The position numbers were made by a program, and so were the translations under genes. This document shows, one piece after another, positions 27,078 to 51,826 of a stretch of 64,000 nt of DNA. Location: contig ML992516.1 in NCBI GenBank assembly GCA_010093995.1, forward strand, positions 1 to 64,000, given 5' to 3'. A model generated the notes under the pieces. It saw only the letters and a program-made list of their open reading frames with translations, was not told where the DNA came from and ran no database searches. Numbering within the stretch: the first letter of the stretch is position 1; each line of letters opens with the position of its first letter. The stretch comes from Elsinoe ampelina. Taxonomy: Eukaryota.

Positions 27078-29446
27078 ATGGCCTATGCTGGAGGGCACCC
27101 TGCGGCGACATATGTGCCGGGAGGCTTCGATGAATATTATGAGCCTCCTCAGACTCCAGCTCTGGTTGCTCCTGCTCCTCAGCGGTCAGTTATAACATGC
27201 CCGCATTCCCTACCCCCATGCCCATGCCCAACCGGCAGGCACTGACGCCGTCACCCAGGATAATGCCAGAGATGTCTGACCAGATCTCCGAGGGTATAGC
27301 CCATATGGATCTGGGGAATCGGCAATCTGTCATGAGTGTAGCTTCAACGAGACCGACAAGCGTCATGGTCGTTCAACCCCTTCCGAAGCTGGTACAACCA
27401 CCGCCAAACATCCCACCTTCCGATGACGATGTCGAGCTTACACTGGAGAATGCACGACAGGCCGTTCTGTCTTCCAACGACCCCGAGATGCAATTGGCTT
27501 GGGCGCAAGATTCACTACATCAAATTGAGATCAACAACGAGGACCGGGTACGGCTACGGAACATGCAAATGCGGAGACCCCCTACTCCTCCTGCGGAAAC
27601 TCAACTCAAGATCGACGCCATGAATATCGTGAGCTTCCTGGCAGAACAACAACATCCACGAGCAGAGTTCATACGGGGCATGTGGTGGGAGCTTGGCAGA
27701 TTCGGCTGCCAGGTAGACAAGAAGGAAGCATTTAGATGCTACTCGCGCGCAGCCGACAGAAACTATGCAAGAGCAGTATACAGAATCGGCATGCTGTATG
27801 AGGCTTCGAATGATCCGATCAAAGCTTTGGGTCATTACCACAAGGGCGCTGGGTTAGGAGATGCAGCATGCTTGTACCGACTGGGTATGATGACACTGCG
27901 AGGACAACATGGACAACCGCAGGATTTTGCGAGAGGCGTGGACCTAATCAAACAGTCTGCAGCCGTGGCGGACGACAATGCCGCTCAGGGTGCTTACGTG
28001 TATGGGATGTTACTGGCTCGAGAGCTCAATCAAATCCAACTGCCTGAAGGTATACTTGCCTTTGACGAGCGAGCTGCCCGCATAGAGATTGAGAAGGCGG
28101 CGTACATGAAGTTCCCCAAGGCTCAACTGAAGATGGGCACTGCATACGAAGTGGGATCTCTCGGGTGCGAGTTTAACCCTGCCTATTCGATGCACTACTA
28201 TGCGCTAGCAGCAAGGCAAGGCGAACCAGAGGCCGAGATGGGGTTGAGCAAATGGTTCTTGGTCGGCCACGAGGGTATCTTCCCAAAGAACGAGGAGCTG
28301 GCATATGTATACGCGCAACGGGCTGCACTTTCTGGATTCGCCAATGCTGAATTCGCCATGGGCTATTTCAACGAACTCGGAATCCACATCCCAAAAAACG
28401 TCGATCTGGCTCTCGAATGGTACAAGAAGGCTGCCAGCAATGGCAACGCAGATGCCCAAGGTCGAATTGACGGCATTTCGAAGAAGCAGGTCTTGTCGCG
28501 GCAAGACCACGAGAAGGTAGCCATCAACCGCATCAAGTCGCAGTACGGCTCGAAGCGCGGCAATCGACCCGAGCGATTCTCACAAGCCAGCCGACTACCA
28601 TCAATAGGAGACGGTCAGCAGAGCCACCGTCGGACGGGAAGTGGTCAACACCCACCTCGAGCTTCGTCAGCGGTACCATATCCTATGGGTGATGGTCCTC
28701 CGGTCCTGCCGCCCTTGGGCGATCGGCCTGCCACTGTTGCTCCTTATCCAACTTCCTACGACCAGATGCCGGGCGCAAATGGCAACAGCAATTACTCAGC
28801 GCCTCCGGCCGACCGTCCATCGAGTGCTTTTAATATTGTCTCTGATCGACCTTATTCATCAATGACTGGCCCTGTCGACGGTCGTCAACGTTATCCTTCT
28901 GGACCCGGTCCTGCTCCACGCCCTGCCACATCCGTCGATGCTTACGGACGACAGCAGGGTCAGCGCATTGCATCGTCTCCTGCGGGTATGCCCGAACCTA
29001 TGCGACCACCCAAAGAAGCAGACCGTCTGGATATTGGATACTCCGCACCCGTAGATGGACGAGGCAGAAGGCCCGTCGGATCTGGGCCTAGCACACCCTC
29101 CCAAGGAGGTCATCTCAATAAGCCAATGCCTGCTCCACCAGGTGGTGCATCTCCTCATCTGAGCACGCCAAGTGGAGGTAGCTATCCCTCACGGACATCT
29201 AGCAGGCCAGACCTCAAGGCTAGCACTCCAGCGAGCAAGACACATAGTCCCGGTCCAGACTTTGGTAAGCAACAGCCTGCAAAGCCAGCAGGTCAGGCCG
29301 GTGCTACTCCGGCGAAGAAGCCAGGCAAGGGACCGAAGACATTCGAGGAGATGGGTGTGCCAGCGAAGAAGGACGACTCGGAATGTGTAAGTTGACTGGC
29401 GCTTAAATCGCAGAGTAAAATTGACAATTTTCAGGTCGTCATGTAA
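27078..29446 (+). CDS. Chitin synthase activator Chs4/Skt5-type Sel1-repeat protein with C-terminal CaaX (CVVM)
   Basis: SSNDPEMQLAWAQD, several Sel1-like repeats, and GPKTFEEMGV. Introns 27185-27258 and 29387-29434; the last exon completes ...ECVVM*. Confidence 0.85.
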
Positions 29447-45347: not shown

Positions 45348-45540
45348 ATGACTACTAATGATTCGCTAGGCAATGCTCTGCTCTGCTGCGCTGCGCCTAG
45401 TATGGATCTATGGTTTCATGCTTGCACTCCTTGACCGGTTTGCAACCACTTTTTGGACCCAGGCTGGTGATCCCTGAGCTTGCTCACATCACTGGCCACA
45501 GTGTCGCTCGTATTGCACTTCCTCGAGCTGACGCAAACCC
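45348..45540 (+). ncRNA. U2-like variant snRNA (~193 nt): U2-type 3' domain, non-canonical 5' domain
   Basis: Sm-like ACUUUUUGG at nt ~101 (45448-45456). SLIII-like stem 45462-45497 with GAGCUUGCUC apex. SLIV-like stem 45501-45534 with UAUUGCAC loop. Promoter and 3' flank are shared with the U1 gene. Confidence 0.7.
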
Positions 45541-46369
45541 TTTTCATCATATCATGGCTCTACTGCTGTGCTTTGGAGAAGAGCCCTGTGCCTTTGTGAC
45601 TGTGAGACTGGCTGAGTATGGTGTCCTCATGTCGAAATGCTGCGTGTGTGATGTGGGCTTGTGAGGATGAGAAGCAGTGGTATCTACAGAGGCTCTTGGA
45701 GGACTGGCGGCGCGTGGTATATTCATGGTTTTCACGTAGAATCATTTATCAGGTGGGGCACGACAATTTCATGTCCTCAGATAGCACGCGAGATGATGTG
45801 GTGGTGCTGTGGGACGATAGGTGCTGAGCTGATGAGGCTCGAAACTGGTGCTGGCAGGGCTCAAGAGGCAGAGATGCCATAGATGTGATGAGCAGTCGGC
45901 GCAGCCACGGTGCTCGTATGGTCTCAAAGAGACTTTCAATGTATGGTATAGCCACTGATCCTCCTCTTCCGTGATCTTGAAGCTCTTCTGAGGCGTTGCC
46001 AATTTATGCGCTCGATCCGCCTGTTCCATCGTCGCGTGAAGCTGAAGCTGGACAGCTGGAGGAGGATCTTGCATGGCCGATTTTGACACCCACAAGCTCT
46101 GAATTGATGCGTATGATGATTCGAAAGAAGCGTAGAGGTCCATAGATCGTTAATTCGGTGATACGATGTGGATGCCATTCGTATCGCTAGCGTGTTCTCG
46201 AAATGTGTATTCTCGGCCCTTGTTTTGGTGACGCCTGACGCGGGCTGGTATGGCTTCTCCCAAAGCTTCGCAAACCTCACCACCAACACCCACGGCAAAA
46301 ATCAACCGACTACCACACCATCACCTCCCCTCGCATACCAACCTCTCCAACGACATATACAAGCTCAAG

Positions 46370-47450: not shown

Positions 47451-48151
47451 AATACCGTGTGTGGCCAGTCACAGACATGCAAGACGGTGCTCAACTGATG
47501 TTTGCTGAGCGCTGAATGCTACCATGCAGTCTGAGAGAGCCTGCTGCTAGAGTGCTTGCCAAATGTTTGCTCATGATATGTTCCCGTCGCTGCTCTCACG
47601 TGTCTATTTGCTCCAGAGAGGCATACGCGCTTTGTCAATTGTTTGATCGCCTTAACAAGGGCGTGATAACGCGAGGACTGCACAGCTTCCAATGACAGCC
47701 ACACGAATAGAACTCCAGGCCCAGCGGACAATCATTGCACGGTATGAATCACTGTAAGACCTCCTGAGGCCTCAGATACACACGATGAACGCGTCGAATC
47801 GTGCTTCGAAACTCGAGGGTCGTCCACAAGTGCTCCAGTGATCTCACCACGGCCTATCCGCCTGTCGCAGTGATCTCGATGGCCCGATGCATCGTGATGC
47901 GGCTCTCCTCGGCTTGAGTCAGGGCCGGCTTCAAAGCCAATAGGGGGTCGCCAGGGGTCGCTTCCCGCGGCTATTAGCCTCCCCTCGCCGTCGCCAGCGA
48001 CGACCAGCCACCAGACACGTCACTGCCGCCCTCGGTAGGCTTCCATGGCCTTCTATTGAGGCTGCGCAGCGTCGTTGCAGTGCACCGTAGCCAAGCCTCG
48101 AGATGCATAAAAACGCGCTCCTCTTCCCTTTCTCTCCTTCTTTCTTTCTTC

Positions 48152-48303
48152 ATACTTACCTTGGAGAGTCAGTTCAGGATCATGAAGCTGGACTGGCTGC
48201 TTGGATTGGGCCTCATTGCACAGCGAGGTCTTGATTCAAGTATGAGCCATGGGAAACCATGTTTCTTCTCTATAATTTTTGATTTATCCCTCTTGGAGGG
48301 GTG
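48152..48303 (+). ncRNA. U1: U1 spliceosomal snRNA
   Basis: 5' AUACUUACCU, SL1 loop GAUCAUGAAG (U1-70K site), SL2 loop AUUGCAC (U1A site), SL3 CAUGG-GAAA-CCAUG, Sm site AUAAUUUUUG, and terminal hairpin CCCUC-UUG-GAGGG. Confidence 0.93.
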
Positions 48304-49255
48304 CTTTCATCATATCATGGCTTGATAGCTGTGCTTTGGAGAAGGTGTTCATGTCTTTGTGAAGTCATATGTGTATGGCGTCCTCATGTCAGGATAGTGT
48401 GTGTGGTACGTGACCTTGTGCCGTGCATGATGCCCTCACATCAAGACAGTATGAGTACGACGTGATCTTGTGCTGCATGCCTCCCTCGCTTTGAGTAGCA
48501 TAACAACATGACGTTGGTGCGCAAGCGACGAGGAGTAAAGTGTTGTGTGCCTCTCACTCCAAAAGCCATAACGTTGTGACGAGTCTACGCGCCCATGGAA
48601 GACATTGACAGACGCTCCCTCTCACTCCAGAGTACACGAAACCGCGACGACAAGGCCTTGCAATCACTCCACAGGGCATATATCCTTGTGATTCAAGCGT
48701 GTGTACAGCGTCCAGTGCAGGTTTTCTCACTCTTGAGGACATGAGATGGCGACGACAAAGGCTTCCTCACGCTCCACGAAGTACATGTCATCACGTCTCT
48801 TGTGTAGGTACAGACTTGGGCGCAGGCTTCCTCACACTCCAAGAGACGGACCTCGAGAATTTTGACGTGCGCTGGGTTGTTGTGTGCGGCCGTCCTCTCA
48901 CTTGGCGAAGCGATCGTAACGTGCGCCTCTCTCGGATCACAGTGCCAGTGACAAGCCTCCTTCAATCTTTACAGATGATCATGCTCATGAGCTGAGAGAC
49001 TGTTATGCAGTTCTTCACACGGCAGACGATGCCTCTAGCGCTCCATGGTATAGGCGCACGCTTCCGCGACCAGACCACTGATCCCAGGGCTCTGAGCTAT
49101 CATCGGCGATGGCCAGCCAATCTCCGACACGCCTTCCATGGCCTTCTGTGATGCCCATCGATGACGCGTGCCATTGATCCAGCAACCAGGGTTAGGGTTG
49201 CAAGGTGCATAAATACGCTGACCTGCCACCCTTCTTCCCTCTTTTCTTTCTTTCC

Positions 49256-49435
49256 ATACTGACCATTACGGGGCTAATTTAGTCTCGCATAGGTTGCCCT
49301 CGCGGGCTCCTCCCTGACCTGTGTCTGAGGCAAGGTCAAAAGGACAACCCGTAGGTTGTCCGGGTGCTAGGTCCCTACGGGAGGACCGGGCCCACTCCGA
49401 TGGGGGCGGGAATCTTTGGAACCCCTTTTGGGGTC
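49256..49435 (+). ncRNA. Candidate Sm-class structured small RNA (~180 nt) with U1-like 5' end AUACUGACC
   Basis: Promoter and 3' flank resemble those of U1. Several GC-rich hairpins (e.g. GGACAACC-CGUA-GGUUGUCC, 49342-49361). Sm-like AAUCUUUGG at 49411-49419 and terminal hairpin ACCCC-UUUU-GGGGU. Confidence 0.62.
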
Positions 49436-51826
49436 TTTCATCAGTCTCCATGGGCTTTACCTGTGGACTGGAGAAGGCTATTGCATCTTCCACAGCTTTC
49501 GAGTGATGTTGTTTGCCCTGGTTGAGTGAAACCTTGGCCGTGTGATGATTTGCCTTGACGCGTTTGCCAGTGTTTGTCACCCATATATGTCTCGTTGCCT
49601 TGTCAAAAGTGAGCGTGATGCCTGGTGAGCCCAGCCCATGCTTGCTTGCGGAGAGGTGTGGTGTGATTTCGCGCTCTGGTGAGGAAATCAAGTGACAGCA
49701 CGTTCAAGCTCATCACGCACTCCACGAAGCTCCGACGACGACGACAATCGGTTCCAAAGGATCGACAAGGCTCAGAGATTGTTCACCATGCTCTTATTCA
49801 TCTCGCAGAGCCGTCCTCAGGTTGTCATCGCCGCCGTCACAAAATTCACCTCCACTCGAAGGTCACCTCCATTTCCGCCACCGCCCGGTCACAAGCAGCA
49901 AGAGGGTATCATCACAAGGTGCGCCGGGCGGCAGCATCAAGATCTAGAGCGCTGGATACGCCTCCAGATGCAGTACACGACCAGGCGAGAAGCATACAAC
50001 ATTCTCATGATGCCGGTTGGGCCATGGACCAACTTGCTTGGGCTGGGCAGGACCAGGTATTTCGCCTCCCATTGAAGTAGATAGACACCCAATTGACTTG
50101 CTCCATGATAGACCTCGCCTCTAGTGCAGAGCTTAGCCAGCCTCAAACGCGCCCTCCTCCCATCCACACTTGCTCTCGAAACGGGGTGGCGACTTCTCCA
50201 CCATGCAGATCAGGACCGTGCGGCACATATTCGCCATCAAGGAGGACAGCGTATACACCAGCAGCTACCTAGAAGAGTACATGGGCAAAATGAAGAGCAA
50301 GGATCCGAGCAAGGCGTATGGCGACCCGGAGAGTCAAGCGGTATACATGAGCTTGGATATATCTGGTGCCATCGTGGTTGGGAACGTTCTGCACTTGGAG
50401 ATGAGCTTCTCCTGTGGCCAGAAAGCGTGCGATTTCCATCGGCATATTAAGAGACACCATTGCTCTGATCCTTTGATAAGTTGTACCAGATCGTTCTGTG
50501 CACCGCGTGTGGACGATACAGCCCTCTGGATACTTAAATCGCAGTTGTCGCGGTCATGCTTAAGAGCAGATCTGAGGAATGAGCGTCTTTGGCTATCAGC
50601 GTAGGACAGTCAGACACGTCACGAGGCGGTAGTATCGTCGGTGTGTCTGGCTCAACGGTTGCGTGTAGTCCTTGAAGGATACCCAATCGTTCGCACTGGT
50701 GGATGCAGTATCACAATTGGCGCGTATGATCTCACCATCAAGCCTGGCTCCCTTTGAGACCTGCCACACCCTATGTAGGCGAGTTGAGCATGTCTTTCGT
50801 CCGTACATATCATGCAGGCCTGACGTGACCTCGTGTACCGAAAATGACTCTCACCCATCCCTGAGAAAGCCCGGTTTGGCGTGTCTCGGTGCTGCTCTAC
50901 CCTCAGGCAAGCCTCTCAAAGCATATTCATGCGACACAATACTCCGTAGTATAGCCTGTCTGCCGCCCGCATGTTTGCAATCCAAAAGCGCACCATTGAT
51001 TGCCTTGGATGATATCGTGCCAATGATTGCCCTTGTTTCGGCACAATCGATCGCGTCTGGTGTGCGTGAGGACGACAATCCTCCCCATTGACATCAAGAC
51101 ACATTATGTATGAGTTCTATTGAGAGTGTTCTCAGGGCACTGGCACGTCTCAAGCTACACTGCAGCCCTTTTGGTGTCTCTGCCAGCTGGTTGCGGTGGG
51201 GTGCCAACACTTGGCTTGACGCCGCAAGTGAGGCGGCCAAAAATTGAAGCTTCGCTCCCTCAAATGGGTGGAGAAGCCTTTGATCCGGCACAGCATCAGC
51301 AATCTGCCTCCAGTCGACTCGAAGGATGGTGCAAAAGATGCGGCGTGATCCAGCGCATCTTTTGGCATACCACACAGAGCCAAAAACGCGATGCCGAAGG
51401 CGCTGGCGATGACTGTGCTCTTTCGAGGGCAAAAAGATGTTCTGGCCGCGGATCGAACTCCTCTGACGGACTTCTCAGGGAGTTGTACACTCGATGTCAT
51501 GGACTGTCAGACTATTGATGGTTAGCGCATGGTTCTACAATTTGACCGTCAGTCCACAGCAGCAGCCGCAGTGCTAGTATTTCACGGAGACGGACACGCA
51601 AGAAATGATTATGTACCTTTGGTCTCTGGCCCCCCAATCATCCCGGGGCCCAATGATGCCAAGTCCCACAGATCCAGTTTTGAAGTTTGAAGCTTTAGCA
51701 ACTCCCATAACAACCACATCACCACCACCATCTACCCATCACGACGACATCTCCGGCGCCCGATATCACTGCCGTTGAACGCATAAGATAATCCATCAGC
51801 TCAGATCAAGCTCGATTCGCCTCAAT

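Follow-up and report, generated by a model that had tools for sequence, protein, structure and literature searches.

Within the stretch of DNA analysed here (64 kb, hereafter the window), three genes lie on the + strand and have common control signals: a U2-like gene at 45348-45541, a canonical U1 snRNA gene at 48152-48304 and, ~1.1 kb downstream of U1, a gene for a predicted RNA of ~180 nt at 49256-49435, which is the subject of this study and is called the candidate below. The ends of the candidate RNA were placed from promoter spacing and from the 3' box that follows it, and the gene is present as a single copy within the window. The U1 gene starts AUACUUACC, folds into a four-way junction and matches RF00003 over the full model (positions 1-166; E 2.7e-14); its score of 63.8 bits does not reach the gathering score of 69.5, and a default Rfam scan therefore does not report it.

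Control signals shared by three snRNA-type genes

Upstream of the candidate, the 15-mer CTTCCATGGCCTTCT (49133-49147, + strand, ~-123) is a candidate proximal-element-like promoter word. An exact copy of this word lies at 48040-48054, ~-112 of U1, and the window holds no third exact match (with up to three mismatches allowed, seven matches were counted, against 2.46 expected). The TATA-like box of the candidate, TGCATAAATACGC (49206-49218, + strand), places ATAAAT at ~-47, and that of U1, TGCATAAAAACGC, lies at 48104-48116 (~-45); the word TGCATAAAWACGC has two exact matches in the window, one at each of these two genes (ATAAA at ~-45 in U1 and ~-47 in the candidate), and the U2-like gene carries the TATA-like word ACATATAAGC at ~-45. 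A CT-rich tract ending in cA(+1) occupies 49230-49255 (+ strand), and the same tract precedes U1 and the U2-like gene. Directly after the candidate comes a composite 3' box, TTTCATCA...CTGTG...TGGAGAAG (49436-49476, + strand). This element was found three times in the 64 kb, both strands included, each time directly after U1, the U2-like gene (45542-45581, + strand) or the candidate. The signals that define Pol II snRNA-type genes in this lineage, namely a TATA-like box at ~-45, a CT-rich start and a 3' box after the last hairpin, are all found at the candidate.

The pattern of the 3' box was also used to scan metagenome contigs, which returned 53 loci. Most of these are chance matches in coding-like DNA, and six of the 53 are snRNA-type by context, as read by eye. 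Half of these six loci are canonical U2 genes (L045, 132 bits; L029, 102.4; L033, 99.8). As the box followed canonical U2 in metagenomes, it is a real snRNA-gene signature in related fungi. No homologue of the candidate was found among the 53 loci, the only match being between the U2-like gene and L045, and a 20-mer of the candidate had no match in the genome contig collection or in the viral contig collection.

The same 3' box follows snRNA-type genes of another fungal lineage, at positions 645-800 of L008 (identical to L011) and 666-801 of L043. L008/L011 is U1-like by eye, with loops CUCAUGAAU and AUCUUGCACAC and an arm, AUACUUAAC, that has an A where C8 pairs with donor G+1; L043 is U4-like by eye (ACCAAUGA...GCGAUUAUGGUGCU) and starts AUACUUGAUG. 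Neither L008 nor L043 gave an Rfam snRNA match at E<=10.

The gene at 45348-45541 (+ strand) is a non-canonical snRNA-type gene in which a U2 3' domain follows a 5' domain of unrelated sequence, and its match to RF00004 (43.7 bits) covers the 3' half only. From the Sm site ACUUUUUGG onward it corresponds to the U2 3' domain, with the UAUUGCACU loop, and over 137 nt it has 75% identity with the canonical L045 U2; this level of identity to a true U2 3' domain identifies the gene as a recent U2 derivative and not as U12. The 5' domain (the first ~100 nt) is unrelated to U2 and gave no Rfam match. It starts AUGACUACUAAUGA, and its free tail of 12 nt carries the branch-site-like word UACUAAU at nt 6-12. 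We also considered that this gene might be the 3' exon of a split U2, and this was rejected: the window holds no match, with up to three mismatches, to the 5' half of canonical U2.

A further block, GTATGG(C/T)GTCCTCATGTC, is shared by U1 (48373-48390) and the U2-like gene (45616-45633). It lies on the + strand ~70 nt downstream of each gene, past the 3' box, is absent after the candidate, and could represent either a terminator element or the remnant of a duplication.

Ends and predicted fold of the candidate RNA

The candidate has AUACUGACC at its predicted +1, followed by hairpins, an Sm-like site and a terminal hairpin. An earlier note on this DNA had described the start as one base different from the splice-donor recognition arm of U1, which is correct: the candidate reads ATACTGACC and U1 reads ATACTTACC, the difference being a T to G change at position 6. 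When the comparison is extended (AUACUGACCA in the candidate, AUACUUACCU in the U1 arm), 8 of the first 9 positions match, the G falls at the position that pairs with donor +3, and positions 10-11 differ as well. The whole 5' tail, AUACUGACCAUUA (49256-49268, + strand), includes the word UACUGAC, which fits the branch-site consensus. Two results bear on how this start is to be read. First, 9-mers with at most one mismatch to ATACTTACC occur 13 times in the window against 4.64 expected, a count reached in none of 100 shuffles, so the resemblance of the candidate is meaningful only through its predicted +1 position. Second, the U4-like L043 of a related fungus also starts AUACUU, and the first five bases of the candidate are therefore less diagnostic of U1 than the earlier note had assumed; as a hallmark of U1, the 5' end is weakened. 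In the thermodynamic ensemble, nt 1-5 of the tail are unpaired (0.98) and nt 6-9 (GACC) pair with nt 37-40 (GGUU; 49292-49295) with a probability of 0.93, so that the clearly free part of the tail is predicted to be nt 1-5 only.

The minimum free energy (MFE) of the candidate RNA is -81.9 kcal/mol. For 200 shuffled sequences the mean was -70.4 (sd 4.7), which puts the candidate at z -2.44, and two of them were as stable. Five of the six hairpins proposed in the earlier note were recovered in the thermodynamic ensemble with mean pair probabilities of 0.95-1.00, and the sixth, GGUCC/GGACC, was not (0.06); in its place the MFE fold shows a multi-branch junction closed by the helix UCCUCCC/GGGAGGA. 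On the + strand, the predicted elements are, from the 5' side, hairpin a, CGGGGCU(AAUUU)AGUCUCG (49269-49287; pair probability 0.99), hairpin b, GCCC(UCGC)GGGC (49296-49307; 0.95), and the multi-branch domain with its UCCUCCC/GGGAGGA closing helix (49308-49385; present in both the MFE and the centroid folds). Inside this domain lie hairpin c, UGACCU/AGGUCA (49315-49338; 0.96), hairpin d, GGACAACC/GGUUGUCC (49342-49361; 1.00), and a weak stem of three base pairs (49362-49375).

The Sm-like site, AAUCUUUGG (49411-49419, + strand), is identified by motif only and has a C that interrupts the U run; the corresponding sites are AAUUUUUGA at 48274 in U1 and ACUUUUUGG in the U2-like gene. The predicted unpaired probability of the site is 0.57 in the candidate versus 0.97 in U1. 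It is followed by the terminal hairpin ACCCC(UUUU)GGGGU (49421-49434, + strand; 0.97), which resembles the CCCUC(UUG)GAGGGG hairpin of U1, and in both RNAs the C-rich/G-rich terminal hairpin leads into GGGGU(G)CUUUCAUCA, the same CUUUCAUCA following both. The order that is typical of the U1 family, an Sm site and then a terminal stem-loop, thus appears to be present in the candidate, as judged from the Sm-like motif and the predicted hairpin. With its U1-like promoter and 3' box, its 5' tail, its Sm-like site and its terminal hairpin, the locus has the layout of an snRNA-type gene on a U1-like plan, in agreement with what the earlier note had proposed.

Relation to known RNA families and conservation in a related organism

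No known RNA family fits the candidate, as the earlier note had anticipated: there was no Rfam match at gathering score and none that was snRNA-like at E<=10. At that threshold, searches with 10 kb or with 196 nt alone returned only four weak matches (CRISPR repeat, lin-4, isrB and RNase P). The U1 model RF00003 gave no match to the candidate at gathering score or at E<=10, a result to be read with the caveat that Rfam also misses the U1-like L008. By inspection, the U1-70K loop, the U1A loop (AUUGCAC) and U5 loop 1 are all missing from 49256-49435, again as noted earlier, and the two U1 loops are present in the neighbouring U1. A canonical U1 snRNP cannot be assembled on an RNA that has neither the U1-70K nor the U1A loop. 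In addition, the body of the candidate has no alignable similarity to U1, and the flanking signals alone match.

Several other identities were considered. U4 finds no support, because the K-turn word (AAUGA...GA) and the U4 layout are absent by inspection and RF00015 gave no match, and nor does U5, because there is no loop 1 (CUUUUAC) 5' of the Sm site, the sole CUUUU being in the loop of the terminal hairpin, 3' of that site, and no Rfam match. For U11, nt 1-20 contain no complement of the U12-type donor AUAUCCUU and there was no Rfam match. A snoRNA was rejected on the lack of C or H/ACA boxes by inspection, and a telomerase RNA on the lack of a template for TTAGGG-type repeats and on a length that is far too short. 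The gene does not read as a Pol III gene, since no T run follows it and T4 occurs only within the last hairpin loop. No credible set of donor, branch site and acceptor was found by eye for an intron inside the candidate.

Among the known systems close to the candidate is U1 (RF00003, including the copy 1.1 kb upstream). The candidate is like U1 in its promoter words, CT-rich start, 3' box and strand, in an arm identical at 8 of 9 positions, in having an Sm-type site followed by a C/G-rich terminal hairpin and CUUUCAUCA, and broadly in size (180 nt versus 153 nt for the neighbouring U1). It differs from U1 in the lack of a U1-70K loop (of the GAUCAUGAAG type) and of a U1A loop, in an unaligned body where two additional hairpins separate the arm from the junction, and in its arm, which has G at position 6 and differs at positions 10-11. 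As the candidate fails on the U1 loops and on the model score, we did not class it as U1 but as a putative Sm-class snRNA gene with a probable U1 origin. Its nearest analogues are human variant U1 snRNAs and U11.

Human variant U1 genes (vU1), as outlined in PMC3561869 and PMC10870369, are duplicates of U1 in which the 5' arm is altered; they are transcribed from snRNA promoters of their own, and non-canonical targets have been proposed for them. On that outline the candidate is comparable, being also a predicted U1 duplicate with an altered arm and its own promoter. The vU1s keep the U1 fold and most of the protein-binding loops and are recognisably U1 in sequence, whereas in the candidate only the ends of U1 survive. 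U11 offers another parallel: this U1 analogue of the minor spliceosome has neither a U1-70K nor a U1A loop, and its 5' end recognises another type of 5' splice site. Its partner is the U2 analogue U12, and here an odd U2-like gene lies 3.9 kb from the candidate. Unlike U11, the candidate has no complement to a AUAUCCUU-type donor; no Rfam U11 match was obtained, and Dikarya are regarded in PMC2396436 as having no minor spliceosome. Finally, nematode SmY RNAs and herpesvirus HSURs are short capped orphan RNAs with an Sm site flanked by hairpins and snRNA-type signals, and have no known canonical spliceosomal role. The candidate resembles them in its predicted Sm-type site flanked by hairpins and in its snRNA-type gene signals, and differs in that their lineages and sequences are unrelated to it. 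To our knowledge, the only orphan Sm-class RNAs described in fungi are the much longer telomerase RNAs, and a literature search over titles and the opening lines of abstracts brought up no fungal U1-like or orphan Sm-class snRNA.

A neighbouring gene for an SPX-RING protein points to Basidiomycota as the source lineage, and public sequencing runs of the source organism contain the stretch. Conservation was assessed in a related organism (organism B; run X6), which contains 0.15 of the sampled words of the stretch and whose contigs were aligned to the window. Organism B keeps the gene order U2-like gene, U1, candidate. The segment 49015-49600, which comprises the promoter, the gene and the 3' box, aligns in B with 43 substitutions in 586 nt, and three stretches between U1 and the candidate are unalignable in B at 80% identity. 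The contig depth at the candidate is like that of its neighbours in B, which suggests that the gene is single copy there. A 4-base deletion occurs in B at 49245, within the CT-rich tract. Inside the RNA, B has three insertions: a C after 49295, a G after 49401 and 7 bases after 49420. When placed on the fold, these fall at a helix junction just 5' of hairpin b (40|41), in a hairpin loop (146|147) and in the linker after the Sm-like site (165|166). Such unpaired or junction positions fit a conserved fold weakly, given that we estimate the chance of this outcome at about 1 in 10 and that the placement of a G insertion in a G run is ambiguous. With 3 indel events in 180 nt, the RNA is not poorer in indels than its aligned flanks, which have 8 in 406 nt. 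Two further runs of the RNA type, as guessed (X4 and X5), gave short contigs of depth 3-4 that look like low-depth DNA; as these contigs also cover the promoter and intergenic DNA, they are uninformative on transcription.

The U2-like gene was compared with B in the same way. Among the substitutions listed, it has 7 in 194 nt, compared with 26 in the next 232 nt, box included; the 40-nt 3' box itself has none, and the 192 nt beyond the box have 26. The 12-nt tail is likewise unchanged in B among the substitutions listed.

Organism B also has at least one further U1 copy, as a contig diverges after 48201 into another CAUUGCAC stem-loop.

Origin and possible function of the candidate RNA

The gene model is real and unusual, and its product is predicted. 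Because the candidate combines U1-like promoter words, a 3' box, U1-like ends, a stable fold and conservation in B, we read it as an independent Pol II snRNA-type gene that most likely specifies a putative lineage-restricted Sm-class snRNA and that probably arose by duplication of the neighbouring U1 gene, a reading in which our confidence is evenly balanced. It is probably an old U1 duplicate with a remodelled core; as the body is not alignable, descent from U1 is argued from the ends and flanks only. On this account the promoter words, the start of the RNA (nine bases, with one change), the Sm-type site with the terminal hairpin, and the 3'-end box would all have been retained from U1. The gene would have lost the U1 core, in the place of which it would now have other hairpins, none of them with a U1-70K or U1A binding loop. 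Transcription would start from the TATA-like box, the 3' end would be processed at the shared box, an Sm ring would assemble on AAUCUUUGG, and the RNA would act through base pairing of its exposed 5' tail, AUACUGACC(AUUA). Several features count against this reading: the C in the Sm-like U run, the limited predicted accessibility of that site (only 0.57 unpaired) and the predicted pairing of tail nt 6-9. Further points against it are the lack of the two protein-binding loops that a canonical U1 snRNP needs, the body that cannot be aligned to U1, the AUACUU start of L043, an indel density in the RNA no lower than in the flanks, and the adequacy of normal U1 for the donor at 27185, which is considered below.

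By descent from U1, the simplest class of target would be sequence that resembles a 5' splice site and carries C or U at +3 (G|GUCAGU). The earlier note had pointed to one such donor, at 27185 in a Chs4-type gene, and a plausible intron does start there: removal of 27185-27258 (+ strand; 74 nt, with donor GUCAGU, branch site CACUGAC and acceptor CAG) would join an upstream frame beginning MAYAGG to a Sel1-repeat frame and so restore a Chs4/Skt5-like reading frame. When paired by hand with canonical U1, this donor has mismatches only at +3 (U1 position 6) and +7 (position 2). It thus pairs adequately with normal U1, and a special snRNA is not required for it. The word GGTCAGT occurs seven times in the window, one occurrence being the antisense of the candidate itself.

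One alternative is that the locus is a decaying or neutral U1-derived pseudogene, which retains promoter and terminator words and specifies no functional RNA. Such a history would account for the loss of all the U1 protein-binding loops, for the imperfect Sm site and for the three indels relative to B, one of which adds 7 bases beside the Sm site and which together are as dense as in the flanks. We nevertheless consider it unlikely, for the promoter words are identical to those of U1 and the 3' box is intact, the locus is alignable in B where the neighbouring intergenic DNA is not, and the body, although unalignable to U1, is more stable when folded than 198 of 200 shuffled sequences, a result that random decay would not be expected to give.

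A second alternative concerns the branch site rather than the donor. The tail word UACUGAC could pair with the GUAGUA box of U2 or bind the branch-point binding protein (BBP), and the RNA would then dock, store or titrate U2 or BBP instead of reading donors. At nt 2-8 of the candidate, UACUGAC is a perfect match to the fungal branch-site consensus, one plausible local intron (27185-27258) has the branch site CACUGAC, and the U2-like gene at 45348 carries UACUAAU in its free 12-nt tail, which is unchanged in B among the substitutions listed; words of the CURAY type in both of these orphan 12-13-nt tails would arise by chance in the order of 1e-3 by our own, post hoc estimate. However, against the 5' part of the L045 U2 both tails paired no better than shuffles (0.33 and 0.25 of which were as good), in a test that has little power because branch-site duplexes are weak, and the best site of the candidate tail on that U2 was not the GUAGUA box. 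The U1 arm is itself one base from the UACUGAC word, which could therefore be an accident of descent. We regard such a mimic as quite unlikely, and we know of no class of branch-site-mimic regulatory RNA in any eukaryote. We also asked whether the candidate pairs with its neighbours: its duplex energies with the U2-like RNA and with U1 did not stand out from those of shuffled sequences (41 of 200 and 87 of 200 as good), and a duplex test in 16-nt windows gave the same result.

The candidate might instead be a very diverged canonical snRNA (U4, U5 or a minor-spliceosome RNA) that the covariance models cannot see in this clade, which we judge very unlikely. In its favour, Rfam fails at E<=10 on the U1-like L008 and the U4-like L043 too, and nt 15-24 (GGGGCUAAUU) appear complementary to the short U6 motifs GCCCC and GAUUAGC, as in U4 stem I. 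Against it, Rfam does detect the U1 and the U2 3' domain of the window, so that the lineage is not generally invisible; furthermore, the candidate has no U4-type K-turn word (AAUGA...GA) by inspection, no continuous stem-II complement at its 5' end, no U5 loop-1 word (CUUUUAC) 5' of the Sm site and no U11 or U12 recognition sequence. As outlined in PMC2396436, the major snRNAs occur throughout Basidiomycota, and no more than isolated U12 and U4atac candidates were seen in rust fungi, which lends some weight to a minor-spliceosome identity. A broader proposal, that the cluster encodes two new fungal Sm-class snRNAs (the candidate and 45348) whose branch-site-like tails, UACUGAC and UACUAAU, dock onto U2 or BBP and tune spliceosome assembly, is in our judgement highly improbable.

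Fungi are thought to splice with a single set of five canonical snRNAs, and most variant or orphan snRNAs of the Sm class that have been described come from animals, nematodes and herpesviruses. If our preferred reading of the candidate as a U1-derived Sm-class snRNA is true, a conserved and separately promoted RNA with a changed arm and a rebuilt core would be the first fungal example known to us, and would lie beside a U2-chimeric gene. It would then provide a small, genetically tractable system in which to study how snRNPs originate by duplication and whether their recognition of splice sites or branch sites is retargeted. The 3' box common to these genes also gives a practical means of locating all snRNA-type genes of the Pol II kind in related fungi, where Rfam misses several.

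Among the loci found with this box, the canonical U2 of the metagenome contig L045 (546-797) has a 60-nt insertion at 609-668, in the region of stem-loop IIa. This insertion reads like an mRNA-type intron (GUAGGU ... CACUAAC ... CAG), and an intron in the U2 gene of a basidiomycete yeast was reportedly described in the 1990s.
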